From an uncultured virus (IMG/VR IMGVR_UViG_3300043775_002819) (taxonomy: Duplodnaviria; Heunggongvirae; Uroviricota; Caudoviricetes), in IMG/VR virus record IMGVR_UViG_3300043775_002819: a stretch of DNA of 20,000 nucleotides. The stretch is one strand, 5' to 3'. Below the pieces are notes generated by a model that saw nothing but the letters and a program-made list of their open reading frames with translations, was not told the DNA's origin and did no database searches. How positions within the stretch are numbered: position 1 is the first letter of the stretch; each line of letters starts with the position of its first letter. A program made the position numbers and the translations under genes. This document shows positions 2,034 to 19,999 of this stretch, piece after piece.

Positions 2034-4871
2034 TTAAGCGGTCTTCATTCCGTCGGGATTTTTAATTGCCGCCGCCACTTTATCTTTATTTAACAATTTT
2101 GTGTTTGCCCTTGAATTAATCGCAACATCTATCAACTCTGAGTCAGATTTCCCTTGTTTTACGGCATCGGTTAATTCATTTGCAAACTTTTTGAAGAAAC
2201 CAGGTCCATTCCAACACGCATAAGTCATATGAACCAAAAGCCCTTTGTTTTTCATAATTTTGTCTTTGACTTCTTGGTCTTTAACAAAATTTGACATATT
2301 TCTATCAAATGATCTTTTCATTATTTTAGCGGCCAATTCTTTTAATTCCTCTTCGTTTTCACCACCTCGATATAACCATTTCCATTTTTTACAAAAAGCG
2401 TCCATTCCCAATTCTTCTTTTTGGTTGTCTATAATTTCAAAAAATTGTTTACCCTCAGGGGTGCTTTCTATGTTACCGTTATATCTATCTAACCCGAACA
2501 TAGTTTCTGTTGATGAACCCATACTTCCCTTCGGGTGATTTTTACAAATTCCTAATTTACTTGTGCTCTCATTTTTTGACGTTGATCCGTTCCAATATCC
2601 GCCCTCAAAATTGGCAATCACTTTTTTTGTGATTTCCATAAAATCTGAATCACTTCCTGATGTTTGAGAAACCGTCGCGGTTGATGTCTGTGTTGATTTA
2701 GTATCGTCCTCATCTGATGTTTCTTTGGATCCAAACAACGAACCAATCTTGTTTTTAAGTATTTGACTAAGATTAGACTTCAACGATCCAAAATTTAAAA
2801 TATCACCAACAAGTTGTCCTTGATTTGTTTCTAAAGATTTGTCGTCGGATAAGTTAATAACTGACGGTTCTGTCGTTTTAGAATATAAACCTTCTGATGT
2901 TTCATGTGGTGGATATTTTTCAGGTAAAGTGTATTTAAAGAAATATTGTCTGATTTTTACTCCTGACTTATTATTAAAGTCTAAAACTTGTGTAATGTTT
3001 CTTGCTCCCATTTTTTCTAATTCTTTTTTTAATGGTCCTACTTGACCCAACGCTCTAATATCGGCCCCACCACCTGCAGATCCTCTTGTTGAAACTCCCA
3101 TGTAAGCATTTCCATCTTGACTTTCATCCAAAGTTGCTTCCCACTGAACCGTATAATTTTTAGAGTCTACTGTTATGTTTATATTCACAACGTCGGGATT
3201 GATTCCTGCGTTGTAAATTTCTTTTAACTTTTCTCCAATTTTTGTTGTCATTTTACCCCCAAAACCATCTTTTTTTCTTCTTTCAAATGAGTGAAGAGCA
3301 TCAGCATCCCCTTTGGGTGCTGAATATCCATCTTTAATTATTAATGGTAAACTAATTTTTTGTTCTTTTATTAGGTTTTTTGGGTTCAGAAGAATTGATG
3401 TTGGGCTACTTAATATTTTTTTTTTAGTAATGTATTTTTCTTGTATTTTGGTGGAAGACTTTATTTTTTCTTTTAAAGTTTTTACAAACTCAGCCTGAAT
3501 GTCTTTTAACAAATCAACATAAGATTCTCTAACTCTTTGTTCAGGTTCTTGGAACTTAGAATTAGAGTATAGATAGTTAATACCAGAAATATTTGTAATA
3601 CATTTATGTCCTCCTGAATTAGCCATAATAACATCATAACCATTTACAGAAGCCTTGTTAAATACTTTTCTATCTTCCGCAGGTATTGATTTGAAAAGTT
3701 TTTTTGACATGTAATCAAGATATTTTTCAAGTTTTTCTGTCCCATAAATCTTCAAAGATGGTGAATTTCCATATATTGCTAAAAAGTCTTTAAATGTAAA
3801 TCCAACTGAAGTTTTATCAGAGTCCATTTCTGATATTCTTTTAAGTGTTCCAAATGAAATTCTTTGTTTTTCTAATTCAGGTCTAAACTTTTCTAATACC
3901 TCATTTTTTATTTCACCTAAATCAACACCCTTTAACGCTCTTTCTTTTTTATATGGATTACAAGATGCTTGAACCATTCCCATTGGAAGTCCTGTCACTA
4001 AGAACTCAGCGTCAGGATGATTGATGAATGGTGTGTAACGATCATATCCACCTGATTTTTGCGTTGGTCCTAATGTATATTGTGAAATAATACCATCTTC
4101 ATAAGTAACACCTTTTTCTTTTCTTGATTCAATATAGGACTCTTGGTTTTTTATCAATTGGTCTATTGACGCATAACCTTCTTTTTCCATTATATCTTTT
4201 ATATTTAATAAAATACTCTGAAGTGATGGTTTTGCATCCATAACTAACTTTTTCAAAAACCCAGGTTTGTTTTTAAACGCTAATAATAACTTGTTAGCAA
4301 CAAGTCCCATCATTTTTTTATTTTCTTTAACTCCTTTTGTTTTATCCACTTGGAATAGATATTTCAAAACTTGTTGTGGAGTAATATCATGTTTTGCAAA
4401 ATCTGCTGAGTCAATCATAGAAATTGTTTCGATATCGTCTTGACTAAAAATATCTCTTGGTGAAATTGATTGTGAAATTGTTTCAACATTCGATCTTGAT
4501 GGTTTGAAGTTTGTTGATGTTCCCTGTTCTACACCAGCTTGAGTGTCGTGGTGATCTGTGTGAATTACAAACATCGGTTTACCGTGAGCAAAATCCACTA
4601 AGACTGGCATTATATCACCTTCACCTTCAGGTTTATGAATTGCAAACTCTTTTGATCCATATTGAATAATTTCGGCATCAACAACTTTGATTCCGTTGTT
4701 TTCCAAATAGTTTTTCATTGCCAATGCCGTGGTAACTCCATCTAAATCTTGATGAAAATAGATTTTGGCCATTTGATATCTTTTGGAAAGTTTTTTAATA
4801 TCTCTGATACCACTTTCTTTAAGTAGTTTTTTAGATTCTTCAGTTATTACTTGAATTATTAAATCTCTCAT
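2034..4871 (-). CDS. Multidomain protein: N-terminal DHH-family phosphoesterase, central unknown domain, S/T-rich linker, C-terminal lysozyme-like (GH108-like) domain
   Basis: DHH motifs HQDLDG (aa ~40-45), LVDF, TDHHD (D106-H108) and a distal GGH (aa 420-422). The C-terminal IANFEGGYWN...ETMFGL (E756) resembles the GH108 EGGY...ETxxGI signature. Confidence 0.75.
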   Translation of the reverse strand: MRDLIIQVITEESKKLLKESGIRDIKKLSKRYQMAKIYFHQDLDGVTTALAMKNYLENNGIKVVDAEIIQYGSKEFAIHKPEGEGDIMPVLVDFAHGKPMFVIHTDHHDTQAGVEQGTSTNFKPSRSNVETISQSISPRDIFSQDDIETISMIDSADFAKHDITPQQVLKYLFQVDKTKGVKENKKMMGLVANKLLLAFKNKPGFLKKLVMDAKPSLQSILLNIKDIMEKEGYASIDQLIKNQESYIESRKEKGVTYEDGIISQYTLGPTQKSGGYDRYTPFINHPDAEFLVTGLPMGMVQASCNPYKKERALKGVDLGEIKNEVLEKFRPELEKQRISFGTLKRISEMDSDKTSVGFTFKDFLAIYGNSPSLKIYGTEKLEKYLDYMSKKLFKSIPAEDRKVFNKASVNGYDVIMANSGGHKCITNISGINYLYSNSKFQEPEQRVRESYVDLLKDIQAEFVKTLKEKIKSSTKIQEKYITKKKILSSPTSILLNPKNLIKEQKISLPLIIKDGYSAPKGDADALHSFERRKKDGFGGKMTTKIGEKLKEIYNAGINPDVVNINITVDSKNYTVQWEATLDESQDGNAYMGVSTRGSAGGGADIRALGQVGPLKKELEKMGARNITQVLDFNNKSGVKIRQYFFKYTLPEKYPPHETSEGLYSKTTEPSVINLSDDKSLETNQGQLVGDILNFGSLKSNLSQILKNKIGSLFGSKETSDEDDTKSTQTSTATVSQTSGSDSDFMEITKKVIANFEGGYWNGSTSKNESTSKLGICKNHPKGSMGSSTETMFGLDRYNGNIESTPEGKQFFEIIDNQKEELGMDAFCKKWKWLYRGGENEEELKELAAKIMKRSFDRNMSNFVKDQEVKDKIMKNKGLLVHMTYACWNGPGFFKKFANELTDAVKQGKSDSELIDVAINSRANTKLLNKDKVAAAIKNPDGMKTA

Positions 4872-5615: not shown

Positions 5616-6833
5616 CTACACAAAAACATAAGGGAGTTCATCCCAAGATGTAGTATATTTTTGAGTAATATAGTCTTGTCTCATTTCCCACTCATGAGTT
5701 TCATTCTGTGGTGCTTCAACAACTTGGACCTCATCATTGAATAAAGAGGTTTGAATAATTGTGTCGGGAGTTAGTTCATTAAAAACAATTCCACACTTTT
5801 TATATTTTTCAGATTTATTACAAAGAACTTTGTATTGTTCATGAATCTGAGACCAAATAAGATCGGGATCTCTTGTTGGGGTTTGTAGTTTGATTGTTTT
5901 AGAATGGTGATACTTATCTCCTTTATGATAGTTTCCTGAAACAAATATGGTTGCCTTATTTGCAAACAATTTGTTTTGACTTAGTTTTTTTACACCGTTT
6001 TTAATGTAGGTATACATCGCTTCACCCAATTGATCAAAGTCCTGTACATCTTTTCCAAATGAACGAGTGGAAGCGATATTCTTCTTTGGTTTGGATTTTT
6101 TTTGAATTGGAAAACAATACATCTCTGTTAACTCCAATTGTGTTTTTACACCATTGATATTCATCAACTTTCTAACAGTATATTCGTTTGTGTTAATAAA
6201 CTGACCTACCGATTCAACACCGATGTTTTTTAATTTTTTTGCCCATTTTCTACCAATACCCCAAACTTCATCTACATCAATTCCATAACAAATATTTCTA
6301 AAGTTTGGTAAGTCCCAGTATGAACACACACCATTATAGTTTAGCTGTTGTTTAGCTAAATAAGATGTTAGTTTAGCTAAGGTTTTGTTCGGACCAACAC
6401 CGATAGATACAGGGATTCCAACTTTCTTTCTTACTTCTTCTTTGATTCCCAATAATGTTTCTGTTAGATCTTCAAGAGGAATGTTTGAAAAATCAACAAA
6501 AGCTTCATCAATAGAATACACTTCAATGTCATTTCCAAACTCACCAATCACTTTCATAACCCGATCTGAGATATCACCATACAAGTTATAATTTGATGAA
6601 TAGACGCAAAATCTATGTTGGTCCATGAACTCACGGCTCTTGAAAAATGGTTCACCCATTTTAATTCCAAGATCTTTTGCTTCTTGAGATCTGGCAATCA
6701 CACATCCGTCGTTGTTTGATAATACAACGGTAGGTCTTCCAATTGACTCAGGGTTAAATAACCGTTCACAACTAACATAAAAGTTGTTACAGTCAATAAT
6801 TCCAATCTTTCTTACATTTTCTTTAATATCCAT
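5616..6833 (-). CDS. umuC: Y-family translesion DNA polymerase, UmuC/Pol V catalytic subunit
   Basis: IDCNNFYVSCE, VVLSNNDGCVIARS, SSNYNLYGDIS, YSIDEAF, GVGPNKTLAKL, VWGIG, TRSFG and C-terminal WEMRQ...YTTSWDEL are hallmark UmuC motifs. Start is ATG 6833 or 6848. Confidence 0.95.
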   Translation of the reverse strand: MDIKENVRKIGIIDCNNFYVSCERLFNPESIGRPTVVLSNNDGCVIARSQEAKDLGIKMGEPFFKSREFMDQHRFCVYSSNYNLYGDISDRVMKVIGEFGNDIEVYSIDEAFVDFSNIPLEDLTETLLGIKEEVRKKVGIPVSIGVGPNKTLAKLTSYLAKQQLNYNGVCSYWDLPNFRNICYGIDVDEVWGIGRKWAKKLKNIGVESVGQFINTNEYTVRKLMNINGVKTQLELTEMYCFPIQKKSKPKKNIASTRSFGKDVQDFDQLGEAMYTYIKNGVKKLSQNKLFANKATIFVSGNYHKGDKYHHSKTIKLQTPTRDPDLIWSQIHEQYKVLCNKSEKYKKCGIVFNELTPDTIIQTSLFNDEVQVVEAPQNETHEWEMRQDYITQKYTTSWDELPYVFV

Positions 6834-7129
6834 GTTACTTTTCCCCATAAGTTTTTTTGTCCTTTGTATTCTCTAAGTTTGAAGTGTGTTTTTTCTGTTA
6901 AAACTACCAAATCCCCATCTTTTGGATCCTCAGTTCGGTCAATTACAATTGTATCTCCTTGGTTAATTCCAAACACACTTGGTCCTGAATACTTAAAATA
7001 AAATGTTGTATAATGATCTTTAACAATTAAGTCGTTTAGATCTAACCTTTTATCAACATAGGTTTCTGCTGGTGAAGCAAATCCTGTTGTTGTCGCTTTA
7101 ATTTGAATTGGGTTTTGATGTCTTAACAT
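6812..7129 (-). CDS. umuD: UmuD-like S24-family protein, shortened (105 aa)
   Basis: TGFASPAETYVDKRLDLNDL matches UmuD GFPSPAxDY...IDLN. Also SGPSV, GDTIVID, GDLVV and WGKVT. Lies directly upstream of and overlaps umuC. Confidence 0.85.
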   Translation of the reverse strand: MLRHQNPIQIKATTTGFASPAETYVDKRLDLNDLIVKDHYTTFYFKYSGPSVFGINQGDTIVIDRTEDPKDGDLVVLTEKTHFKLREYKGQKNLWGKVTWILKKM

Positions 7130-7543: not shown

Positions 7544-8113
7544 TTATTTGATAATAGTAACAAAACCTGAAATAACTTTCAATTCATCAGAGTCTAATAA
7601 GTCAATTTTCATAATCCAAGAGTATGTTCCATCAGGAACAAAACTACCATTATATGTTCCGTCCCAATTTGTATTTGCGTTTTTACTTTGCCAAACAATA
7701 TTTCCCCACCTATTATAAACCGTAAGTTCAAAGTTTTCTAAAGAAATCCCACTTGTTATTACTGGTCCCCACGTTTGATTAAATTCATTATTATCGGGTG
7801 TAAAAGAATTTGGGACCCAATAAATTAAGGGATCACATTTTGTTACACTCACATTATACACAACAGGTGGACCTGGACATCCTAAATCATTATAACCAAC
7901 CGCCACTATTTGATAATCACCAGGTTGACTATATGTAATACTCATATCGTTTCCGTTTCCTAAACTGAAACCATTCAAAAACCATTCAATAGTTCCACTC
8001 ATATCAATTGAAGTTGAATATGTCACGGTATTTGAACTTTCACATATTTCAAATTCTTGTTGTGAAAAACAAGTTAAACTAAAAAATAAAAACAAAAACA
8101 ATAATTGTTTCAT
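7544..8113 (-). CDS. Secreted protein with Ig/PKD-like domain and T9SS type-B (gliding motility-associated, CHU_C-like) C-terminal domain
   Basis: Signal peptide MKQLLFLFLFFSLTCFSQ. C-terminus YWVPNSFTPDNNEFN...LTVYNRWGNIVW...WDGTYNG...PDGTYSW...GFVTIIK matches the type-B CTD pattern PNxFTPNxDGxND...IYNRWG...WDG...GTY. Confidence 0.88.
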   Translation of the reverse strand: MKQLLFLFLFFSLTCFSQQEFEICESSNTVTYSTSIDMSGTIEWFLNGFSLGNGNDMSITYSQPGDYQIVAVGYNDLGCPGPPVVYNVSVTKCDPLIYWVPNSFTPDNNEFNQTWGPVITSGISLENFELTVYNRWGNIVWQSKNANTNWDGTYNGSFVPDGTYSWIMKIDLLDSDELKVISGFVTIIK

Positions 8114-8679
8114 TAGTTATGTGATATTGGTGTTAATGTTGGTAATGGGTTTACAACTACGTTTATTGTTGTTGAAAATGAACATCCTCCGTTTGAATAT
8201 AAATAAGATATTGTGTGTGTTCCTGCTCCCGCAGTTTGAGGACAGAATTGACCATTAACAACACCAGGTCCCGACCAAATCCCACCCGCAGGAGTTCCAA
8301 CTAAAGGAACACATGGATCTGTTGAACAAAATGGTCCAATTTGAGTTATTGTTGGAACAACATTATAAATTAAAACATTTAGGTTAACCGCTGGTGAAAA
8401 ACACCCTTGAGGACTTGTATAAGTAACCGACACACCATTATTGATAAGACCCGCAGGACAATTGGACCAATTGACAAATATTGTATTTGTTCCTTGCCCT
8501 GATTGGATTGTTGCACACGCAGGGATTGTCCAGTTATAGTTTCCATTACCAACTGAAGTAACGGTGTATTGAGAAAGGGTTCCTGATTGAAAACAAATTG
8601 TGTCGGGATTGTTTGTTGTTAATTGACCAAAAAGTGTTGTAGTCAAAAACATGAATAGTAATACAAATAATTTTTTCAT
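8113..8679 (-). CDS. Secreted adhesin-like protein with two PKD/Ig-like beta domains, C-terminal PISHN
   Basis: Signal peptide MKKLFVLLFMFLTTTLFGQ. YNWTIP...IQSGQGTNTIFVNW (PKD-like) and GTPAGGIWSGPGV...FCPQTAGAGTHTISY are segments typical of Bacteroidota surface proteins. Confidence 0.8.
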   Translation of the reverse strand: MKKLFVLLFMFLTTTLFGQLTTNNPDTICFQSGTLSQYTVTSVGNGNYNWTIPACATIQSGQGTNTIFVNWSNCPAGLINNGVSVTYTSPQGCFSPAVNLNVLIYNVVPTITQIGPFCSTDPCVPLVGTPAGGIWSGPGVVNGQFCPQTAGAGTHTISYLYSNGGCSFSTTINVVVNPLPTLTPISHN

Positions 8680-8688
8680 TTTTTTATT

Positions 8689-9744
8689 TTAATTATGGTT
8701 TATTGGACCTAACAATATTTGATTAGGTTGGGTTATAGTTACAGATCCTGTTGCTGTGCAACCACTTATATTTACCGTTACGGTATATGTGCCAGGACAA
8801 AGATTTGATATTGAAGGGGTTGTTTGTCCTCCCGGTGACCAAAGAAAAGTGGCCCCTGGTGTTGTTACATTTGAGTTTGCGGTTCCATCACATAATCCAA
8901 AACATGTGACATTTGTTGAGGTTGGGTTAACCACCAAATTAACGGGTGTGTAAGTGATTGTTAAATATCCGTGTCCTGTGTTGTTTGTGGGTAAACAAGT
9001 TCCTCCAACAGGGACAAGTGAAGATCCTCCACCGCCACCACCTCCACCGTTAGCACCAGTGCAACATCCATCATTTCCTCCACCGCCACCGCCATAACGA
9101 CCGCCACCGCCACCGCCACCTGATGCCGTTTGCCAAAATCCACCATTTCCACCTTGACCTAATGTTCCTGCTTGACCACCAGGAGGTGTTCCTGCCCAAG
9201 GAGCACCACCATTTCCTCCTGCAACTTGTGTTCCTCCTCCACCGCCAGCACCAAAGGTATTTCCTCCGTTTGCTCCGTTATTACATAAGGCTCCACCACC
9301 AGGTGTATTTGTGTTTGATCCTCCACCTTTACCACCACCCGCTCCTGCAACAATTACTCTATTTGCAAGTGCGGTTCCTCCAATTCTAATATCAGTTGCA
9401 CCTCCACCACCACAAGAATTATATGTTACATTCGCAGGGTTAGAAGCATATCCTGTTCCTCCACCATTCCATCCTCCTGAATTATTTCCACATGTCCCCA
9501 TTCCACCAACATATATATTCAGAGTTTGACCTGGTGTTACGGCTATTGTTGCGGTTATTCTTGCTCCGTTTCCTCCAATAGCACCTCCACCTTTTGCTCC
9601 TGCGGCGACTACATTGATAGAAGTAACACAAGGTGGAACAACCCATGTTTGAACAGCACCTGTATAATTAAAAGTTACGGTTTGAGTTTGTGATAAACTA
9701 ATGAAAAATAGAAATATAGATACTATAAAAGATATTAGTTTCAT
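8689..9744 (-). CDS. Secreted glycine-rich-domain protein with one SprB-like repeat, C-terminal PINHN
   Basis: Signal peptide MKLISFIVSIFLFFISLSQ (start moved from 9750 to 9744). FNYTGAVQTWVVP...GAKGG...GGGGATDIR...VIVAGAGGG is a Gly-rich domain. NVTCFGLCDGTA...FLWSPG...SNLCPGTYTVTV...GCT is SprB repeat-like. Confidence 0.82.
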   Translation of the reverse strand: MKLISFIVSIFLFFISLSQTQTVTFNYTGAVQTWVVPPCVTSINVVAAGAKGGGAIGGNGARITATIAVTPGQTLNIYVGGMGTCGNNSGGWNGGGTGYASNPANVTYNSCGGGGATDIRIGGTALANRVIVAGAGGGKGGGSNTNTPGGGALCNNGANGGNTFGAGGGGGTQVAGGNGGAPWAGTPPGGQAGTLGQGGNGGFWQTASGGGGGGGRYGGGGGGNDGCCTGANGGGGGGGGSSLVPVGGTCLPTNNTGHGYLTITYTPVNLVVNPTSTNVTCFGLCDGTANSNVTTPGATFLWSPGGQTTPSISNLCPGTYTVTVNISGCTATGSVTITQPNQILLGPINHN

Positions 9745-9748
9745 ACAC

Positions 9749-9755
9749 ATAAATA
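9749..9755 (-). promoter_or_regulatory. TATTTAT motif 4 nt upstream of ATG 9744
   Basis: Minus strand reads TATTTAT-GTGT-ATG at the head of the adhesin-like cassette. Confidence 0.55.
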
Positions 9756-9827
9756 CGACAAAAAAATAATTAGGTTTGGGCCAATGAAAGTTTATGATGT
9801 TTATGTTATTATTTGAAAGATTTTCAC

Positions 9828-9835
9828 TATATTTG
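9828..9835 (+). promoter_or_regulatory. Bacteroidota-type -7 promoter element TATATTTG
   Basis: TAnnTTTG consensus 4 nt upstream of the in-frame GTG 9840 of uvrC. Confidence 0.65.
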
Positions 9836-9839
9836 TATT

Positions 9840-11114
9840 GTGATTACAGAGAAACTTTCAAACATTCCCCAATCAAGTGGTTGTTACCTTTTCAAAAATG
9901 AGAAGGGTCAGATCATCTATGTGGGTAAGTCAAAGTTTTTACCGAAACGAGTGAAGTCTTACTTTCAAAAAAATCACAAGGATATCAAGACTACTTCTCT
10001 TGTGAGTGAGATCCGTGATGTTGAGTTCATGACTACTAACGATGAGTCACAGGCTCTTTTGTTGGAGGACGAACTTATCAAGTCTTTGAAACCAAAATAC
10101 AACATCAAAGCAAAAGACGACAGATCTCGTCGTTGGTTTATTACTTTGAGTGATGAGGAGTTCCCTCGTTTACAAGTTTGTAATCCTTCTAACTTTTCAG
10201 GTCAGATCCTTCTTGAGTCTACAAGTTCCAACTCTTGTTATGAGATCTATGAAATGGTTCACGACATCTTCAATCTTCGTTCTTGTTCTTACAACTTGAC
10301 TGAAGAAAACATTTCAAACGAAAAGTTCAAAACTTGTTTGGAGTTTCATCTTGGTCGTTGTAATGCACCTTGTATTTCAAACATTCTAAAGTTCTCCTAC
10401 AAGAAGATTGTAAGTGAGATGAAAGAAGTATTTTCTTTTGAGTTTGACAAGGTTCGTAGTCGTTTGAAAAAGTCTATGAAATATTTTTCTGATTCTATGG
10501 AGTTTGAGAAAGCTCAAGAGTTCAAAACTAAAATCTCTGTTGTTGATTCACTTCAAAAGAAACTTGAACCTTTTCGTGTTAGAAAGTATAATGATGTTGC
10601 TCGTCAGTTTAAAGAATCTTTGGGTCTTATCAATGTTCCTACTTTGATTGAGGCGTTTGACAATTCTCACACTAGTGGTGACTGTCAAGTGTCTGCTCTT
10701 GTTCGTTACAAGAATGGTAAAACTGATAAGTCAAACTACCGTAAGTTTAACATCAAAACTGTTGAGGGTCCTGATGACTACGCTTCATTCACTGAAGTTC
10801 TTTCTCGTCGTTTTACAAGACTTTTGAACGAAAAACAAGAGTTACCTTCACTTGTTGTTATTGATGGTGGTAAAGGTCAGTTGGGTGTTGCAAAACAAGT
10901 ATTTGAATCTCTTGGTTTGTTATCTCGTATTGATTTGATTTCTATTTCCAAAAACGACAAACACCAATCTCAAACAATCCACTTGACTGACGGGTCGTCA
11001 TTTGATATTCCACGAAATGAGTTTGGATTTTTGCTTGCTGAAGTTCAAAATGAAGTTCACAGATTTGTGATTTCTTTTCACCGTAAAAAAAGATCAAAAA
11101 AAGTTATTGGATAA
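9840..11114 (+). CDS. uvrC: UvrC-like excinuclease subunit (GIY-YIG, Cys cluster, UVR, RNase H-like domains; no C-terminal HhH)
   Basis: IPQSSGCYLF...IIYVGKSK, ALLLEDELIK..KPKYN, CLEFHLGRCNAPC, MEFEKA (UVR), IEAFDNSH, YRKFNI, DDYAS, PSLVVIDGGKGQL, NEVHRF..FHR. Start placed at GTG 9840. Confidence 0.92.
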   Translation: MITEKLSNIPQSSGCYLFKNEKGQIIYVGKSKFLPKRVKSYFQKNHKDIKTTSLVSEIRDVEFMTTNDESQALLLEDELIKSLKPKYNIKAKDDRSRRWFITLSDEEFPRLQVCNPSNFSGQILLESTSSNSCYEIYEMVHDIFNLRSCSYNLTEENISNEKFKTCLEFHLGRCNAPCISNILKFSYKKIVSEMKEVFSFEFDKVRSRLKKSMKYFSDSMEFEKAQEFKTKISVVDSLQKKLEPFRVRKYNDVARQFKESLGLINVPTLIEAFDNSHTSGDCQVSALVRYKNGKTDKSNYRKFNIKTVEGPDDYASFTEVLSRRFTRLLNEKQELPSLVVIDGGKGQLGVAKQVFESLGLLSRIDLISISKNDKHQSQTIHLTDGSSFDIPRNEFGFLLAEVQNEVHRFVISFHRKKRSKKVIG

Positions 11115-11760
11115 ACTTGGTATCGTAGTAACCTAAATTGTTGCCGTATGGATCCCTAAATAGGGGATAATTGTTTAAGATGTTGTCAATTTGGGGGTAA
11201 AGATTTTCTGTTTCCCAGTAACTTTCTTTGTCAGGTAGAAAGTCATTAAGATATTCACTTACAACAACTTTAGGATCCCACCACTCACCATCTTTTTCGG
11301 CTCTTACTACTTTCACATTATTGTATAAACCAAAACTTTCATTATCCCAATAACTTGTTGATACACCAACTGATTCAATAAATAATTTGTATCTTTCATA
11401 ACCAATAAAAGGAGTTCCTAATGTAAAATTAATCTCTTTAACGGAATTAAACACTTTTTGAATTCTTGATTTTAATTCTTCATTTAAATAAATTCCTTGT
11501 TTAAAGTTTGGTACAAAATACACATCAATTTTTTCATTTACAAAATCCCCAAAGTCTTCTGTTTCATCATAAATATAATCCCCAACAATTGGTGAAAAAT
11601 ATGAAACATCATTCGGGTTTTGAACTCTGAAATACATGTTAGTTCTACCATTTCTTCTAACAGATGGTTCTACTTTAACGGGTGTAACAACCAAACCATG
11701 TATGTCCAAAGGATCACCTGCAAAATGTTTGAATAGTTTTAATATTTTTTCGTTATCCAT
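11104..11760 (-). CDS. Hypothetical protein, 218 aa
   Basis: ORF coupled by TAATG overlap to the lysozyme gene. Overlaps the uvrC 3' end convergently by 11 bp. Confidence 0.8.
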   Translation of the reverse strand: MDNEKILKLFKHFAGDPLDIHGLVVTPVKVEPSVRRNGRTNMYFRVQNPNDVSYFSPIVGDYIYDETEDFGDFVNEKIDVYFVPNFKQGIYLNEELKSRIQKVFNSVKEINFTLGTPFIGYERYKLFIESVGVSTSYWDNESFGLYNNVKVVRAEKDGEWWDPKVVVSEYLNDFLPDKESYWETENLYPQIDNILNNYPLFRDPYGNNLGYYDTKFIQ

Positions 11761-12677
11761 TACCCAAACATTTTATATTCTCTTTCTCGTCTTGTTTTCA
11801 AACCAGGGTATTCGTTAAACATGTGAGAACTTGTGTTTAGTATTTCCTTTTTTGCCCCTTCCAAATCACCTCGTTTAACATATTGGATAAAATCGGATGT
11901 TCTAATACCAGGTCCCATGTTGTATGCCATAGACACCATTGCATCATACATACTTTGAGTTATTGGTGGCGTAATTCCTTGTTCTTCCCACTGATCTAGT
12001 ATTCTATTGATAATACTTTCTGCCTCTTTAATATCGTCTTTAAGTAGTGTTTCTGCTTGTTCTTTTGTGATTTTGGTTTTACCTGAAATGATTTTATTAT
12101 ATCTTGGAAGAAATTCAAACGATTCTTCTTCATCAGGAAACACAGCATGACCATAACCAATTGTTTTTGCACCATCACCAAGATTATAAGCCGTTAATAC
12201 TGGTTCACCTTTATGGATTATTGAACCTTCTTCCCATTTTAAATGATTTAATAATTTGTCTGATGACTTTCTAATCCTTAAATCCTTAACGACATTTTTA
12301 ATAATTTCTTTTTCTTGTTTAACTGCAGTTTCAAGTGGTGGTTCTAAATAATTTTTTATTTGTCCAATACTAATAAGACCAATTAAAGAAAAAATCACAT
12401 ATTTGATAATTTTTCTTTTAATTTGAGAAGGTAGGTTTTTTATTTTATTAGACAAAGTCTGTAAAAACTCTTTGGCATCTTCTTTTGTTTGAACCCAAGA
12501 TTTTGCTAAATCAATATCCTTTTTAACATTTTCAAAGTCCCATTCCATGTCTGGTTCGGTTTTACCATCATTCTCTATGATTAATGATAGTTTGAACACC
12601 ATGTCATCTATAATACTTTCATAAACGAATTTAGTTTGGATTCTTTGAAATTGTTCTTCTGTAAGTGAAACTTTCAT
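11760..12677 (-). CDS. GH24 phage lysozyme/muramidase with ~135-aa N-terminal extension
   Basis: LKWEEG...AYNLGDGAKTIGYGH, ITKEQAETLLKDDI, QSMYDAMVSMAYNMG and GLKTRREREYKMF are GH24 motifs. N-terminus has an MKVSLTEEQ leader and a hydrophobic segment YVIFSLIGLISIG. Confidence 0.9.
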   Translation of the reverse strand: MKVSLTEEQFQRIQTKFVYESIIDDMVFKLSLIIENDGKTEPDMEWDFENVKKDIDLAKSWVQTKEDAKEFLQTLSNKIKNLPSQIKRKIIKYVIFSLIGLISIGQIKNYLEPPLETAVKQEKEIIKNVVKDLRIRKSSDKLLNHLKWEEGSIIHKGEPVLTAYNLGDGAKTIGYGHAVFPDEEESFEFLPRYNKIISGKTKITKEQAETLLKDDIKEAESIINRILDQWEEQGITPPITQSMYDAMVSMAYNMGPGIRTSDFIQYVKRGDLEGAKKEILNTSSHMFNEYPGLKTRREREYKMFG

Positions 12678-13089: not shown

Positions 13090-14046
13090 CTATCTAAATT
13101 TTTTTTTCAAATTATCAAGTTTTGCCTTTTTTAAGGCAGAGTTCAAATTAGGATGATACAACATCGATCTGTTGTTGTTAATGGCATCATAATTTATTTT
13201 TTTTGGTTCTTTCGGAATATCTCTTTTTGGTTGATTAGAAAAAATCGTAGAAATAGATTCGTGTTTCAACTTTTTTTTCTCATATTCGGTTATTTCGTGT
13301 TCTTCTTTTAACTCAATCAAAGATTTTGTAAATTCTTTATTTTCAATATCAACAACTTTATATTCACTCGTTTTGAGCCCCTCCAATTTTAAAAAATGTT
13401 TTGGTTTATTTTTACTAATGAAAAAATATTTAGCCCTAATTTTTGATGATAAGTTTGTCTCAGGATGAATTGTTAAAGAATTTTTGTGTAATCTTCTATG
13501 AAATAGAATATGATTCGTATGTAATATTTTTAAATTCATTTTATATAGTCGAGACATAAGATCTGAGTCTGCGGCAACTCTCCATCCCTCAAATCCATTA
13601 ATACTTAAAAATATGTCTTTTTTAATCCCAAAAACTCCCTCACCAAATGTATTTTTTTGTTGTTTGAACTCTCGTTGATTGTTCTTATCCTCAAAATCAA
13701 TATATTTTGGTTTGATCAAATCATATATGTTTAATTGACTGTCAATTTCCTCAAATAAATTTGGCAGAATAACATCATCAGAATCAAAGAACAAAATTTT
13801 ATTATACTGACTTATTTCAACTAAAGTATTTTTAATTAGATAGGGACCTTGATTTTCCAAAAAGAAAAAAAACTTAAAGTTTTTTGGAAATTCTTTATTA
13901 TAAATGTAATCGATCGTTTCATAACAATTATCAATTCCAATCAAAACTTCAAATTCATTATCATATCTACTATTTTCTATAGATAAAAAAAGTTCATCCA
14001 AAAAAATAACATTTTTATAAGTTGGTATAATAACACTTAAACTCAT
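13090..14046 (-). CDS. Glycosyltransferase family 2 with C-terminal extension
   Basis: SVIIPTYK, EVLIGID, ENQGPY..KN, LFFDSDD (DxD), INGFE...ADSDL. Confidence 0.9.
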   Translation of the reverse strand: MSLSVIIPTYKNVIFLDELFLSIENSRYDNEFEVLIGIDNCYETIDYIYNKEFPKNFKFFFFLENQGPYLIKNTLVEISQYNKILFFDSDDVILPNLFEEIDSQLNIYDLIKPKYIDFEDKNNQREFKQQKNTFGEGVFGIKKDIFLSINGFEGWRVAADSDLMSRLYKMNLKILHTNHILFHRRLHKNSLTIHPETNLSSKIRAKYFFISKNKPKHFLKLEGLKTSEYKVVDIENKEFTKSLIELKEEHEITEYEKKKLKHESISTIFSNQPKRDIPKEPKKINYDAINNNRSMLYHPNLNSALKKAKLDNLKKKFR

Positions 14047-14993
14047 CTGAATTTCTTTTTATTAAATGTTGAAATTTGTTTTGAATTAAGTTTCAGATTA
14101 TTTGTATTAACCTGTGGTTTTTGTTGTGTATTATTTTGTAAATTTGAAAATATTCTATTAACTTTTTGGTAATCAATTGTTTTTTTATTTATTTCTAAAG
14201 TTTTTTCAATTTTTACCGGTTCATGTGGTGGTGGAGTTGGTTGCGGAATTGATATATTAGGAATTTGTTCTAACGAATTATTTTTATTATAGTTTTTTAA
14301 ATTTTCTAAGTTAATCGTTTTATTAAAAATAGAATTTACAACTTGTGTTTGTATAAAATCATTTTTAGATTCTACATCATAAATTGTGGTTTTTTGTGGT
14401 ATATATTGTATATAACCTTTTAGGTGTTTCAAACAAATAATCTCAATTTTATTTTCCATACAATATTTTCCTAACCAAACATCGGCCATATTTGGAAATA
14501 TAAAATATTCAAATGGTATTTTAAGTAAATTGGTATGAAAACACATCAATCCTGTTCCTCCAAATTGCACTTTTGTGTCTTTCGAGACCTCTTGTAAAAA
14601 ATGATATCTTTTTGATTTGGATTTGTAATATGATTGTATAGGGAAATTTTCAAAATTTCTTCCATGATAAGTAATTACTTTTTTTCTTTCGTAAAAGTCG
14701 CATTTTTGAATGATTTTTTTTATAAAATTTTTAGGGTAAATTATATCATCGTCTAATGTAATGTAATAAGCATCTTCGGTATTATTTAAAAAATAAAACT
14801 TATAAGCATCTCCCTTTGAGTTGTCAGTTATTAAAATATTAATCTTATTGTCAAAAAGAAATTTTGGTATTTCACCTTCATAAGAATTTAAGGCAACGTT
14901 TATTTTGTCACAATCTTCAATTACCGAATTTATTACTTTTTCTAAACCATCATTTCTTTTGTATGATGATATATTCACAACAATTTTACTCAT
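14043..14993 (-). CDS. GT-A fold glycosyltransferase (GT2-like) with C-terminal low-complexity tail
   Basis: SSYKR, KGDAYKF, YYITLDDDIIYP, GGTGLMCF and NMADVW motifs. Lies within the GT cluster. Confidence 0.78.
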   Translation of the reverse strand: MSKIVVNISSYKRNDGLEKVINSVIEDCDKINVALNSYEGEIPKFLFDNKINILITDNSKGDAYKFYFLNNTEDAYYITLDDDIIYPKNFIKKIIQKCDFYERKKVITYHGRNFENFPIQSYYKSKSKRYHFLQEVSKDTKVQFGGTGLMCFHTNLLKIPFEYFIFPNMADVWLGKYCMENKIEIICLKHLKGYIQYIPQKTTIYDVESKNDFIQTQVVNSIFNKTINLENLKNYNKNNSLEQIPNISIPQPTPPPHEPVKIEKTLEINKKTIDYQKVNRIFSNLQNNTQQKPQVNTNNLKLNSKQISTFNKKKFR

Positions 14994-14994
14994 C

Positions 14995-15696
14995 TTAAAA
15001 AATATTTAAGTCATTAACCATTCTTTCGTTAATGTTCATTTTTGATTTTTCAAAACCATGTTTAACTAATGATACTTTGGTATGATACATTGTATAACCT
15101 AAATCATTTAACCTTTTTGTTAATTGGTATCCAACCCCTGAACTTAAATTTGGGTCTTTGTTCCATCTGTTTTCTGAAATGGGGTTAATTTTGAAATCTA
15201 AAACCTCAAAGAATTTTTTTTCCGCAATAAAATCTAATTCAACCCATTGTGTTTGAATGTAATTGTCAATTATGTTTGGTGTAAAGTTTGACCAATTTGG
15301 TCTTTTTGTTCTTACATCGGTTCTAAACTCCAAAGAAATTTTTTTGTGGTCATTTAAATTCTCATATAAATTTGTAACGTCTAAAATAAAATTATCATCC
15401 ACTAATAAGTCATCTTGTAAGTATATATAATATTTTGATTCAATATTCCTTATATATTTAAAAGTCTGATCGATTATATACCAAAACTTTTTTTTACCGT
15501 GATTATTTGAAAATTTTATATATTTTATATTTTCATCGTAATTAATAAGATTTTCTTTACCTCCGTCATCAAAAACTACGATTTGAATTTTTTTATCCCC
15601 TTTTTGATGTAAAATTTTTTTTAAAAGGTTTTTTAGTGCCAACTGTCTATCAAAAGTGGTGATTATGATGCAGTAGTCAAATACTTGGTTTCCCAT
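14995..15696 (-). CDS. Glycosyltransferase family 2-like
   Basis: IIITTFDR, IVVFDDGG, NHGK, YIYLQDD, SLVKHG. Confidence 0.82.
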   Translation of the reverse strand: MGNQVFDYCIIITTFDRQLALKNLLKKILHQKGDKKIQIVVFDDGGKENLINYDENIKYIKFSNNHGKKKFWYIIDQTFKYIRNIESKYYIYLQDDLLVDDNFILDVTNLYENLNDHKKISLEFRTDVRTKRPNWSNFTPNIIDNYIQTQWVELDFIAEKKFFEVLDFKINPISENRWNKDPNLSSGVGYQLTKRLNDLGYTMYHTKVSLVKHGFEKSKMNINERMVNDLNIF

Positions 15697-15702
15697 AGAG
15701 AA

Positions 15703-16413
15703 TTAAATTTTAAAAATTTTTTGTTTAGATATATATTCTCTAACCATATTTTTATTTGTTCTTCCTAGTCTTTTTAAAGTAGTATTAGGGTGATTTTTTC
15801 TATAAATATAAATTGGTTCTTTTATTACAGACACTTCTTTTTTTGAACACTGTTCCAAACATGGATAACTGTATGCCAAATCTGTACAATTTGTAAAAAA
15901 ATTACCGTCCATTTTTAAAATAGTTTCAGGTATCGTATCAATCAAACTTTTTCTAAAAGTGTTTAAAGCAGTAGCTTTCCATTTTGTTTTTCTAAATAAT
16001 TTTAATTCAAAAGTTTCTTCACTGTATTCTTCAACTTCAAAAACAACATTAGTGTCCATATCAACCCAATTGCCGTATGTCATTTTTATTTCTGGTGTAT
16101 AATAATTAGTAACTATTTCCAAAGCATCTAAACTTAATTTATCATCTAAACCAACAAAAGAAACAATTTCACCTTGTGCTAATTTATTTAAGTTATACCT
16201 ACCATATAATGCACCCATATTTGTTTCATTGTTATATATTTTTATATTTTTATTTGATTTGAATTGCTCTAAAACTTTTTTGGTAGAATCAACGCTCCCA
16301 TCATTATAAATTAATATTTCAAAATTATCATATGTTTGATTCAGAATTGACCGAATACACTCTTCGGCATATAACTCACAATTGAATCCTGTTACAATTA
16401 CAGAATGTTTCAT
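15703..16413 (-). CDS. Glycosyltransferase family 2
   Basis: SVIVTGFN, CIRSILNQTYDNFEILIYNDGSVDST, NMGALYGR, YIYR. The DxD position reads FVGLDD. Confidence 0.9.
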   Translation of the reverse strand: MKHSVIVTGFNCELYAEECIRSILNQTYDNFEILIYNDGSVDSTKKVLEQFKSNKNIKIYNNETNMGALYGRYNLNKLAQGEIVSFVGLDDKLSLDALEIVTNYYTPEIKMTYGNWVDMDTNVVFEVEEYSEETFELKLFRKTKWKATALNTFRKSLIDTIPETILKMDGNFFTNCTDLAYSYPCLEQCSKKEVSVIKEPIYIYRKNHPNTTLKRLGRTNKNMVREYISKQKIFKI

Positions 16414-16414
16414 T

Positions 16415-17050
16415 TTATTTAATTACTTTACAATCTTTAAAAATATGGAAATCAGTTAGATCTCTATATCCATTTATTTCATTTAAATCTATATTGTTTT
16501 CGGGATAATTTTGTAAAAGGCAAAGTCCATGAGCAGCTTCCTGTGGTGTCATATACATATTCCAACCAATTGTTTCAATATTATCTTCTTTATAAAACTT
16601 TTCACTTCTACCCTCATATCTTGCCTTTTTAAACCACTTTGCGGCCACTTCATCGTCCGTTAGTATCATACCTCCTTTTCCAATACCAAGTTGTTTTTTT
16701 ATATGGAAAGATAAACCCATATAAGAACCAGGAATATACATGTTTGATGTTAATCTTTTTGCTGAGTCATAAATTGGATATGGTTTTAATTGATATAAAC
16801 CGCTCCAATGATTTGTAATTTCCCTTTTATCAAAAATAACTTCACCACCAGCATTAATTATACTCATAGGGACAGATAAATATGTTTTTGAGGGAATCGT
16901 AACTTCTTTAACTTGATGATATTTACACATCAAAAATAAGGCATTTGTACAACTATCAACAGATATTGCATATTTAGCACCAGTGTAAGAAGCAATTTCT
17001 TCTTCAAACATTTTTACTATTTTGTATGGGTTATGTTCTTTTATTGGCAT
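16415..17050 (-). CDS. DegT/DnrJ/EryC1/StrS-family PLP aminotransferase, compact (211 aa)
   Basis: FEEEIASYTGAKYAISVDSCTNALFL, VTIPSKTYLSV, YDSA, SFHIKKQL..GKGGMILTDD, GWNMYM. Confidence 0.85.
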   Translation of the reverse strand: MPIKEHNPYKIVKMFEEEIASYTGAKYAISVDSCTNALFLMCKYHQVKEVTIPSKTYLSVPMSIINAGGEVIFDKREITNHWSGLYQLKPYPIYDSAKRLTSNMYIPGSYMGLSFHIKKQLGIGKGGMILTDDEVAAKWFKKARYEGRSEKFYKEDNIETIGWNMYMTPQEAAHGLCLLQNYPENNIDLNEINGYRDLTDFHIFKDCKVIK

Positions 17051-17055
17051 ATTTT

Positions 17056-17820
17056 TTATTTTGGTACAAATTTTATTAATTGAGATTGTAACTTTTTCAT
17101 AAAGGCAATTTCAGTATCTGTATTTTTTTTTGTGTAGGTTCTTTCATTTATATTAAAATAACTTTTTTTGTTACAAATAATTTCACTATTTGACTCAACA
17201 ATTTCAATATCATCAGTTTTAGGTATTTTTTTTATTAAATCCCATTTCTCCTGTAAAGTTATGTCGGTAAATTGTGGTTTAACTTTAGAAGTTATATTTT
17301 TTGCAGGACTTCCGGCGTAAACTTGATCTGTTTCCATATCTTTTGTTATTACACTACCAACCAAGGCCATTGATCTATCTTTTGCGTGTATTGGTGAAAC
17401 AATACAATGACCAACAAACCAAACATCATTCCCAATTGTCAAAGGTTTATTATCGTTGTAGTTACAACCAATTAAAGGATCCCCATACTTAATATGACTC
17501 CACAATTGAGAATAGGCACCAATACCACAATTGTTTCCAATAGTAACTCCACCTATAGAATCAATTATACAACCTTGTCCAATCCATGCGTTATGTCCTA
17601 TTTTCATAGGTAAATAACCATGAATATTTGTGTGATGGTGTATTTTACAATAATCACCAATTTCTAATTCATCAATTATTATTTGAACATTGTCGCCGAT
17701 ATAAGTATTATCACCTATTGTTATTTTTTTTGCATTACCATTTATTCCTTTTATAGTTGCCTTAGGTGAAATAAAAGTATTTTTACCTACTCGGAAATCC
17801 TCACAAAAAACATTATTCAT
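17056..17820 (-). CDS. Hexapeptide-repeat (left-handed beta-helix) sugar acyltransferase
   Basis: Repeated IGDNTYIG, IGDYCKI, IGHNAWIG, IGNNCGIG, IGNDVWF and the motif GSVITKD...YAGSPAK. Confidence 0.9.
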   Translation of the reverse strand: MNNVFCEDFRVGKNTFISPKATIKGINGNAKKITIGDNTYIGDNVQIIIDELEIGDYCKIHHHTNIHGYLPMKIGHNAWIGQGCIIDSIGGVTIGNNCGIGAYSQLWSHIKYGDPLIGCNYNDNKPLTIGNDVWFVGHCIVSPIHAKDRSMALVGSVITKDMETDQVYAGSPAKNITSKVKPQFTDITLQEKWDLIKKIPKTDDIEIVESNSEIICNKKSYFNINERTYTKKNTDTEIAFMKKLQSQLIKFVPK

Positions 17821-18598
17821 AATAGTTAGAGTATAACCAAGAATTATCCGAAATAAAGGTATTTTTTATAGACTCTGAAGTTTTATAATTTATTTTACCA
17901 ATTTTTTTTGATTCATCTTCGATTTGTTGGATTAGGTTGTTAGTGTTTTTATAGGTAGAAAAAAATTCACAGTTTTCAAACCCTAAACCTATTGTTTTTC
18001 TTCCCATATAAGCCATTTCGAACATGGTAGTACAACCACCTTTTTCATTTGGTTTAATATACACAAAAGAATTTTTATAAAATTTATTTTTTAAAGTTTC
18101 AATTGTTTCGTTTTGAGTATACAAAATATTATCTTTACCAAAATGGTTTATTATTGGTTGGATTACCTCGTCCCATTTAAAATAATCTTTTCTGTTGCCT
18201 AAAATTCCTTTATAAACGTAAATTTTATCCCCACATTCAATTGGTTGGAACTCGTCATAGTTTTTTATAGGAACAAAAATTTTTTTATGTTTTATTTTGT
18301 ATTTACTTAATACTTCCGAAAAAAAACCTGGATAAACCCAAGTATAGCATGAACCAATATCTACTAAGTTTTTAACTAAACTTAAAGATTTTGGTCTATC
18401 TAAGTCAGAACCTCCCCAAATTACCAAACTTTTTCCTTTATGATTTTGCAAAAACAATCTATCTGTATTTGTGTATAAACCAAAAAAAATTGCCGGTTTA
18501 TTAGTATCGTAATAATCAACTAAATTCCATTTTTTTTTGAAATTATCAGAAAAAAATTCTGATAAATTAGAAGAAATTTTAACTTGTTTAAACTCCAT
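17813..18598 (-). CDS. Putative glycosyltransferase-like (possibly GT-B) protein, ~261 aa
   Basis: Start moved to ATG 18598 (MEFKQVKISS), 1 nt after the upstream stop. IWGGSD and YIKPNEKGGCTTMFEMAYMGRKTIG resemble the GT-B 'E...G.P.I' region. First gene of the glycosylation cluster. Confidence 0.6.
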   Translation of the reverse strand: MEFKQVKISSNLSEFFSDNFKKKWNLVDYYDTNKPAIFFGLYTNTDRLFLQNHKGKSLVIWGGSDLDRPKSLSLVKNLVDIGSCYTWVYPGFFSEVLSKYKIKHKKIFVPIKNYDEFQPIECGDKIYVYKGILGNRKDYFKWDEVIQPIINHFGKDNILYTQNETIETLKNKFYKNSFVYIKPNEKGGCTTMFEMAYMGRKTIGLGFENCEFFSTYKNTNNLIQQIEDESKKIGKINYKTSESIKNTFISDNSWLYSNYYE

Positions 18599-18599
18599 T

Positions 18600-18905
18600 T
18601 TATTTTTTCTTTCTCCCTTGACAATGAGCCTTTTGACTAAAACCTTTTGGGTTATTACAGTTGATTGATCTTTTATATTTTTCAGACCACTTTTCTTCAA
18701 TTGGTTCTTTAGATAATTTTCCTTTCCAAAACTTAAATAAGTTTTCTTTATCGTAAAGACCTTTTTTTTGGTCCCACCCACAATCATGACAAAGAAATGG
18801 ATGTTTGTCATCATTTTCTTTTTTCCAAGAGTGTTCGCACTTTTCGCATTCAATCTTTTCGTTGAATATTCTATCGGCCTGTTTTTCTGTTAATAGTATT
18901 TTCAT
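18600..18905 (-). CDS. Small Cys-rich protein (CxxC...CxxC zinc-ribbon-like plus basic C-terminal module), MKILLTEKQ leader
   Basis: CEKCEHSW...LCHDCG, then EKWSEKYKRSINCNNPKGFSQKAHCQGRKKK. TAATG overlap with the upstream gene. Confidence 0.82.
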   Translation of the reverse strand: MKILLTEKQADRIFNEKIECEKCEHSWKKENDDKHPFLCHDCGWDQKKGLYDKENLFKFWKGKLSKEPIEEKWSEKYKRSINCNNPKGFSQKAHCQGRKKK

Positions 18906-19594
18906 TAGTTACAGTTTTCTACTAAGTCATTATAAATATCTACTAAATAATTGTGGTATTTTTCTTCTAAATATTCTTCTACCTCATCTCTAACCTCAAC
19001 CATTTCGTCTGGTGGATATTCATAGTCTTCATCTTCATCATCGTTGTAATAAAAATAAAGTCCTTGTCCAATACAATAGTCAGCATAGTCATTCTCATCC
19101 TCAAAATCACATGGATCTTGTATTTCAGTTTGATACTCTATTGACTCTCCAATTTTTTCAAGTTCACTAAATCTTCGTCTTAGTTTAGTACTCATTTCAC
19201 GACTTTCAGAAATCACTTCTTCATCACGATCATTTAATTCCATGTCCTTAATATCAAACCCATATTTGTGTGTTCCTATTATATTTGCAACTTTAAGTAT
19301 TAATGTGATTTCAAAATCTTGAAAGTCCGCTCTTTGAAACCATTCTTGATCTGTGTGTATAGAAAGTTTTACATCATAATGGTCGTGTATTTTTTTTACT
19401 TCTAAAACTTTAAGTTTTGTTGTTCCGTTCTTGAACCCTTTACAAAGTGCAAGTTCAAGATTTCTAAATGCATGTCTTCTAGAACAACCTTCAACATAAT
19501 CTTCAACCGCCATATCAACAAGATTTTGAACTGAATCAATTTGTTTTGATTCAAGTAATACTTTTTGTTGATCTTCTGAAATGATGATTTTCAT
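18905..19594 (-). CDS. Hypothetical protein, 229 aa, acidic C-terminal half, MKIIISEDQQKVLLES leader
   Basis: ORF with the shared leader and an internal EEVISES linker. Confidence 0.85.
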   Translation of the reverse strand: MKIIISEDQQKVLLESKQIDSVQNLVDMAVEDYVEGCSRRHAFRNLELALCKGFKNGTTKLKVLEVKKIHDHYDVKLSIHTDQEWFQRADFQDFEITLILKVANIIGTHKYGFDIKDMELNDRDEEVISESREMSTKLRRRFSELEKIGESIEYQTEIQDPCDFEDENDYADYCIGQGLYFYYNDDEDEDYEYPPDEMVEVRDEVEEYLEEKYHNYLVDIYNDLVENCN

Positions 19595-19599
19595 ATTAA

Positions 19600-19606
19600 A
19601 TAAATA
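19600..19606 (-). promoter_or_regulatory. TATTTAT motif 5 nt upstream of ATG 19594
   Basis: Minus strand reads TATTTAT-TTAAT-ATG in a 15-nt intergenic gap. Confidence 0.6.
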
Positions 19607-19609
19607 GTT

Positions 19610-19999
19610 CTAAATGTGAGTTACATAACCATGTCTGTCTGTTATAGAAGCATCCCAAACACCAGTTAAGTTATATTGTGTATTTTTATTAACCTCTGGA
19701 AAAAAGTGACCAAAAACATCACCAATTTTATCATAAATTTCATCACCTAATTCTTGACTATAAAATTCATCCTCTGTTAGGGACAAATTTGTTTTTATGT
19801 TAAAAAAATAATAAGGTAGTCCTCCCCAATCTCTATCAATACTTACCTGTAATCCATCAAACCAAGAATAATCGTCCAACTCTCTTTGGACATTTTTAGA
19901 AACCACTTTTTTTAATTTTATGGCCCTGTCATATAGTTGTTGAAGATCCATATCCACAATGGAATTTTCTTTGAGAAGACTAACTTGTGATTCTGTAAT
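19610..19999 (-). CDS. Hypothetical protein, 5'-truncated by window edge
   Basis: The frame stays open upstream of 19957, reading ...ITESQVSLLKENSIVDMDLQQLY. This is the same leader type, so the true start lies just outside the window. Confidence 0.8.
   Translation of the reverse strand: MTESQVSLLKENSIVDMDLQQLYDRAIKLKKVVSKNVQRELDDYSWFDGLQVSIDRDWGGLPYYFFNIKTNLSLTEDEFYSQELGDEIYDKIGDVFGHFFPEVNKNTQYNLTGVWDASITDRHGYVTHI

Follow-up and report, generated by a model that had tools for sequence, protein, structure and literature searches.

Three adjacent minus-strand genes, here called A, B and C, were identified in a 20,000-nt stretch of viral DNA (the window), and they probably encode a modular, multi-chain type IX secretion system (T9SS) cargo, in which A, B and C would be chained tail into groove and exported on the C-terminal domain (CTD) of C via a host PorP/SprF shuttle. 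The key feature, overlooked in the preliminary description of this DNA, is a C-terminal tail shared by A and B. The positions of the genes and of their main parts are given in Table 1.

Table 1. Features of the three-gene cassette in the window
Feature	Position	Strand
Gene A, the variable tip: signal peptide, Gly-rich domain, a single SprB-like repeat and the tail; without a CTD	8689..9744	-
ALK/LTK-type glycine-rich domain of A (PF12810)	9016..9606	-
A tail (PNQILLGPINHN-stop), which may act as donor to B domain 1	8689..8727	-
Gene B, the conserved adapter: signal peptide, PKD_6, another Ig domain and the tail; without a CTD	8113..8679	-
B tail (NPLPTLTPISHN-stop), which may act as donor to the Ig domain of C	8113..8151	-
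Gene C, base: signal peptide, Ig domain, type-B CTD	7544..8113	-
Type-B T9SS C-terminal domain of C (PF13585, TIGR04131)	7553..7816	-

The ORF of A is open to position 9750 (353 aa), and translation probably begins at its second Met, at 9744, which is also the end given in the preliminary description; B and C consist of 188 and 189 aa, respectively. A and B are separated by 9 nt, the B stop and the C start overlap by one base, and the three products together amount to about 680 mature residues. As had been described, each gene begins with a signal peptide followed by Gln; the signal peptides were called by eye and from hydropathy (peak 10-residue mean 2.9-3.2). That of C has a basic start, a hydrophobic core and an invariant Gln18, and the Gln after the signal peptide is invariant in 48 of 48 B rows and 37 of 37 C rows. 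Comparison of the window genes with three orthologous cassettes gave dN/dS values of 0.05-0.21; A, B and C are each under purifying selection.

C matched CHU_C (PF13585) with 61.3 bits (cut-off 27) and TIGR04131 with 48.4 (cut-off 35), which confirms the type-B CTD assigned earlier to the last gene, and the CTD motifs are kept across 37 C rows. According to the accessible part of PMC12618676, type-B cargo need five CTD motifs, A to E, for secretion. The CTD profiles of Pfam and NCBIfam gave no match on A or B. B matched PKD_6 (PF19408; 29.8, cut-off 25) and has a second Ig domain, in agreement with the PKD/Ig-like pair reported before. The N-terminal domains of B and C are homologous (hhalign, 96.9%), and the Ig domain of C, the homologue of B domain 1, is without its first ~10 residues. 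A had been described as Gly-rich plus SprB-like; the Gly-rich part is borne out by a match to ALK_LTK_GRD (PF12810; 37.2, cut-off 24.5), and the repeat is supported by an alignment of the last 84 aa to a repeat of a SprB-positive fused protein of the same genome (44% over 77 aa), but Pfam SprB itself gave no match on the window's A. Two other A proteins (L004, L053) are matched by Pfam SprB. A search of solved structures with A returned a single low-complexity match.

The tail of A and B reads (P)-I-x-H-[N/D/F/Y]-stop, with A ending in ILLGPINHN and B in LTPISHN. Among the matches listed (120 of 365), 118 of the 120 B homologues end in I-x-H-[ND], and the other 2 are shorter and look truncated. 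The tail is present on B in all 82 viral B loci. The distinct tails number 90 for A and 56 for B; all of them have His at position -2, 144 of the 146 have Ile at -4, and marine-type variants have F or Y as the last residue. The His codon varies silently (CAT 127, CAC 64). None of 1270 other distinct ORF ends from 176 related loci carries the motif, and in the source record (G000) only A and B carry it among 109 ORFs. We rejected two other views of the tail. The view that such tails are common in Bacteroidota found no support: a strict DNA pattern was found in 1 of 401 sampled genomes, the same number as for the control, and that match was not at a stop. An intein end consists of a Hint domain and His-Asn followed by a nucleophile; here there is no Hint match, a stop follows, and the last residue may be D, F or Y.

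What the tail may do is suggested by single-chain relatives of the cassette. The source record itself encodes an 816-aa homologue of the whole cassette with a different tip (G000:C1:40201-42651; L131:402-2852), consisting of SprB repeats, PKD_6 and a type-B CTD (CHU_C), and fused versions are also found in G408, G409, L012-14, L183-185 and the 635-kb phage LR745206. At both joints of the fused proteins (the 816-aa protein, L012, L120 and L242), tail-like residues stand directly before the xxC start of the next domain, which reads DTVC or ELC and is where mature B and C begin. The internal joint of B shows the same tail-like pattern, which giant bacterial repeats share. In the fused forms the tail-equivalent residues open the next Ig domain, and B and C are without that domain start. 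In a model of a natural B-C fusion (pLDDT 93.8), the PKD domain 4u7k matches residues 158-240 (Z 8.7, rmsd 2.0, 80/86 aligned), a range that covers most of the tail-equivalent stretch 158-168, absent from split C; single PKD domains align from residues 156-163 onward. That stretch is modelled as a confident coil, not as a DSSP strand, and this linker has no Ile. Nothing in the fused linkers corresponds to the invariant His-x end, which thus appears to be an addition, and B keeps 5-6 N-terminal residues that overlap the place proposed for the tail. From the fused joints and the fold ranges we infer that the tail of A may complete B, and the tail of B may complete C, in a tail-into-groove manner. 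The preliminary description had suggested that the three chains assemble with a single export signal; the shared tail and the fused homologues give this suggestion a concrete mechanism, the assembly itself being our reading of them.

Instead, some factor of the host or the phage could recognise the tail as a small signal for sorting or anchoring, and A and B would then be dealt with separately from C. The invariant His and the fixed spot at a free C-terminus do look like a recognition motif, and in the model of the B monomer (two Ig domains, pLDDT 91.6) the tail is unpaired yet confident. However, tail genes were seen only beside B/C-type neighbours or at contig ends, the 10 without a recognised neighbour being A genes next to a contig end that cuts B off; four large virus records contain no tail-ended ORF besides A and B; and in fusions the tail sits exactly where the next chain starts. 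We therefore regard a sorting signal as unlikely.

To see how the cassette is distributed, 96 viral loci were compared, which are the best hits of three scans (one kept 80 of 117) and are redundant, with many near-copies. They comprise 78 A-B-C, 5 B-C-A, 6 A-B, 1 B-C and 6 fused arrangements; the cassette thus recurs in 90 of the 96 (a redundant and phylogenetically clustered set), in line with the expectation that the three genes co-occur elsewhere. Of 324 metagenome loci, 80 were taken, with 39 A-B-C, 3 B-C-A, 3 A-B-B-C and 1 A plus B-C fusion; the two B copies of the A-B-B-C loci are 83% identical in protein and 77% in DNA. B and C are constant across loci, and A is swapped among unrelated domains bearing the same tail: GRD, CUB, GEVED, PKD-bearing and an unnamed 197-aa class. 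The last is the commonest tip (L051:4158-4751); it belongs to no Pfam family, and its Atlas clusters are unnamed and viral. Further signal-peptide genes lie directly upstream of A in L005, L050, L072, L093, L112 and L049, and in that of L049 (2484-4934) a type-A CTD just reaches the cut-off (PF18962, 27.1 bits).

Of 120 long single-chain proteins among the matches listed, 96 have an N-terminal domain with 56-84% identity to the window's tip; a type-B-like CTD stands at the end of 90 of these 96, and the tail at the end of none. This agrees with the earlier statement that the modules normally occur in one host polypeptide, and the tips therefore appear, by sequence, to be taken from host adhesins. 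The split form occurs in cells too, rarely: in L029, a Flavobacteriales MAG, where it lies between SRP54-type GTPase/guaA and lolA/ftsK genes, and in the cell-like A-B-B-C contigs L194-L196, which have radical SAM and DEAD helicase neighbours and a 927-aa CUB/PKD tip. L029 is the one split case among 34 genome loci, and a sample of 401 genomes contained no further one. A profile of B domain 1 matched 39 of these 401, with L029's source genome as the one strong match, and no tail cassette was present in 12 regions that were inspected. The best 150 matches among 50%-identity representatives are giant repeat proteins only, none with the tail. In the ESM Atlas the clusters of B are named only 'PKD-like' and are 95-100% viral.

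The source record (IMG/VR) is a contig of 70,579 bases, 24% complete. The whole window is 100% identical to part of a 140-kb virus record, G409, which has a T4-like Gp23 capsid match (E 1.5e-64) at 33-35 kb on the minus strand; the contig is thus viral rather than cellular, as had been presumed. G409 also has a bS21-like match at 38.8 kb on the plus strand, below cut-off (23.7/27). In the search of related virus records, bS21 matches were over cut-off in G407 and G408, and G406 had none. A Gp23 match in G408 (C1:267424-268926) has two internal stops (TAG, TAA) and is perhaps a split or interrupted capsid gene. In a quick tree of 88 CTD-side segments, the viral and metagenome rows formed one branch (SH-aLRT 100), which also takes in a long-branched cell-like row; L189, a relative of L194-L196, lies inside this branch on a long branch. 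The nearest bacterial rows are Crocinitomicaceae and unclassified Flavobacteriales, weakly supported. Our best reading is that the cassette is carried by a large T4-like phage of aquatic Bacteroidota. In a search for RNA evidence, five runs contained small shares; four of them, when compared in detail, consisted of contigs, three probably of DNA, with pieces from relatives. A promoter and terminator scan gave chance-level results.

Several other genes were recorded. The cassette is flanked by a umuD/umuC-like pair (5616-7129, minus strand) and a UvrC-like gene (9813-11114, plus strand). Positions 13090-18853 (minus) encode four GT2 glycosyltransferases, a DegT-type aminotransferase and a hexapeptide acyltransferase, which could modify phage or cell-surface glycans; 11760-12677 (minus) encodes a lysozyme with a long N-terminal part, and 2034-4871 (minus) a protein of 945 aa that matches DHH weakly and has a relative in L004 that is two genes. 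A leader motif of the MK(I/R)I(I/L)xE type stands at the N-terminus of many unrelated-looking ORFs at 270-2019, at 18600-19957 and across the source record, which have no family matches. G000:C1:26801-27316 (L132) encodes a 171-aa secreted-looking protein with, by eye, a T9SS-type-like end and no Pfam match.

The complex might belong to the phage particle, as a Hoc-like Ig decoration or fibre tip whose disulfides are folded in the periplasm and which joins the particles at lysis. A tail-tube-like gene lies less than 1.5 kb from the cassette or fused gene in 27 of the 96 viral loci (the gp19 match is weak, E 0.0047), RB49 Hoc is tied among the top fold matches (Z 9.2, rmsd 6.4), and the Gly-rich part of A also matches unnamed PHROGs. 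Against these stand the conservation of the CTD motifs, the presence of the same cassette in cells, and window neighbours that are uvrC-like, GNAT and umuDC-like genes, so that a virion accessory seems improbable; the tail-tube neighbourhood leaves some room for a role late in infection or in the virion.

Export would need a PorP/SprF shuttle. Type-B cargo leave the translocon on PorP/SprF-type carriers (PMC10994853, in its accessible part), and SprA is reported to let folded cargo through (bioRxiv 2024.01.29.577165, part of the text). No PorP/SprF gene was matched in the window or elsewhere on the 70.6-kb contig (controls silent), as the preliminary description had noted for the window, and none in related virus records of 296 kb (100% complete), 263 kb and 436 kb, for which a bacterial control gave 24 matches. 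This absence is not anomalous, because in F. johnsoniae the orphan type-B cargo, 3 of the 12 described in the accessible part of PMC12618676, share one host shuttle and go to the gliding machinery. The lack of a phage shuttle gene would also suit a decoy, in which C occupies the host translocon or shuttle and stops adhesin export and gliding, with A and B as bulk that need not reach the surface; likewise, the mutations that make F. psychrophilum resistant to phage lie mostly in gliding genes (PMC9804748, as far as its accessible text goes). Tips that can be exchanged, are of ligand-binding type and are under purifying selection are easier to explain by a role outside the cell, and we consider a decoy quite unlikely. 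That A, B and C are fragments of a decaying host adhesin gene is extremely improbable and was rejected, as it had been earlier: the breaks do map onto the single-chain layout, but the genes have their own signal peptides, conserved tails, the low dN/dS values given above and a permuted order, and exist in freshwater-type and marine-type variants.

The multi-chain cargo that we favour would work as follows. A, B and C, judging from their signal peptides, would each enter the periplasm by Sec. The A tail would dock into B, at its incomplete first Ig domain, and the B tail into C, at its incomplete Ig domain; this would restore, without covalent links, the order of tip, stalk and CTD that is found on a single polypeptide in hosts and some phages. 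Through its type-B CTD, C would then engage the host's translocon and a PorP/SprF shuttle of the host, probably one that serves orphan cargo, and would take A and B along, so that one export tag serves a swappable tip. The infected cell would display a phage-chosen tip, and the split form would let the phage swap it as one small gene, a swapping that is observed across loci. The adhesin-type, exchangeable tips suggest action outside the cell. Masking of, or competition with, host T9SS adhesins that other phages need and sticking of the infected cell near new hosts appear about equally likely as the use; the former is made plausible by the gliding-gene mutations of resistant F. psychrophilum in the part of PMC9804748 cited above. 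A bolder version for Bacteroidota and their huge phages, to which we give low credence, is suggested by the A-B-B-C loci: B might accept its own tail (A-Bn-C), so that CTD-less subunits chained by a His-tipped C-terminal donor segment would form an extended stalk, a fibre drawn through the T9SS on one CTD as a tip-swappable pilus that re-dresses infected cells.

T9SS cargo is defined by its own CTD; if a tail allows proteins that have none to travel on a partner that has one, the range of export would be wider. If the conserved 10-12-residue tail is such a rider signal, it would flag cargo missed by CTD searches, and it could serve as a plug-in display tag. The cassette is also a small, clonable test of the passage of multi-chain complexes through SprA, and it points to a widespread, uncharacterised surface change of infected Bacteroidota by huge aquatic phages, with exchangeable host-derived adhesin tips. 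The open-access literature that was searched gave no precedent for CTD-less chains carried through the T9SS; it likewise yielded no report, the accessible part of PMC5445135 included, of a split, tail-linked type-B cargo.

Among known systems, the bS21-encoding freshwater myoviruses (Chen et al. 2022, PMC9723584, cited here from its accessible part), of ~300 kb and ~31% GC and with freshwater Bacteroidetes as predicted hosts, are a group to which the source phage may belong. They have the Gp23 capsid gene and bS21 on opposite strands, as may the matching G409 with its bS21-like match below cut-off, and the supplement lists 'PKD domain' and 'gliding motility-like' genes, whereas 'secretion' and 'PKD' are absent from the main text. 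Some 'PKD' rows of the supplement show low or zero transcription; these rows need not correspond to A, B or C. Phage T9SS cargo as such are known from print, in the cryophages of Bellas et al. 2020 (PMC7468147, accessible part), which are likewise phage-encoded and variable and presumably leave by the T9SS of the host; they consist of one chain each and carry type-A CTDs (enzymes, PA14), whereas the form described here is type-B, split and tail-linked, and in this form we found no earlier report of it.

With type-B T9SS cargo (TIGR04131/PF13585; SprB, the orphans Fjoh_1123/1720/4934, GhpA) the cassette shares a signal peptide, a tip, an Ig/PKD stalk and a type-B CTD. GhpA of Aureispira (PDB 9FLP) is both the best sequence match (E 7e-32) and the best fold match (Z 10.0, rmsd 6.8, 306 aligned), but it has 5,898 residues against the sum of A, B and C given above. 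The cassette differs from these cargo in consisting of three small chains with one CTD and a shared C-terminal tail, in being phage-encoded and in having no porP/porE neighbours. SprB is a giant chain with many SprB repeats and A has one SprB-like repeat, so that the name 'SprB-like', first given to the cassette, does not fit it in size or family.

In donor-strand pili, namely the type V fimbriae of Bacteroidota and the chaperone-usher pili, each subunit lends a terminal segment to the one that follows and so completes its Ig-like fold. The cassette resembles them in the proposed completion of the next fold by a terminal segment and in having tip, stalk and base subunits. Pilin, lipoprotein and chaperone/usher families of Pfam and NCBIfam gave no match on A, B, C or the window neighbours. 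Unlike these pili, the cassette has no gene for a lipoprotein precursor, maturation protease, chaperone or usher, and it has instead PKD-type domains and a T9SS CTD as the export tag.
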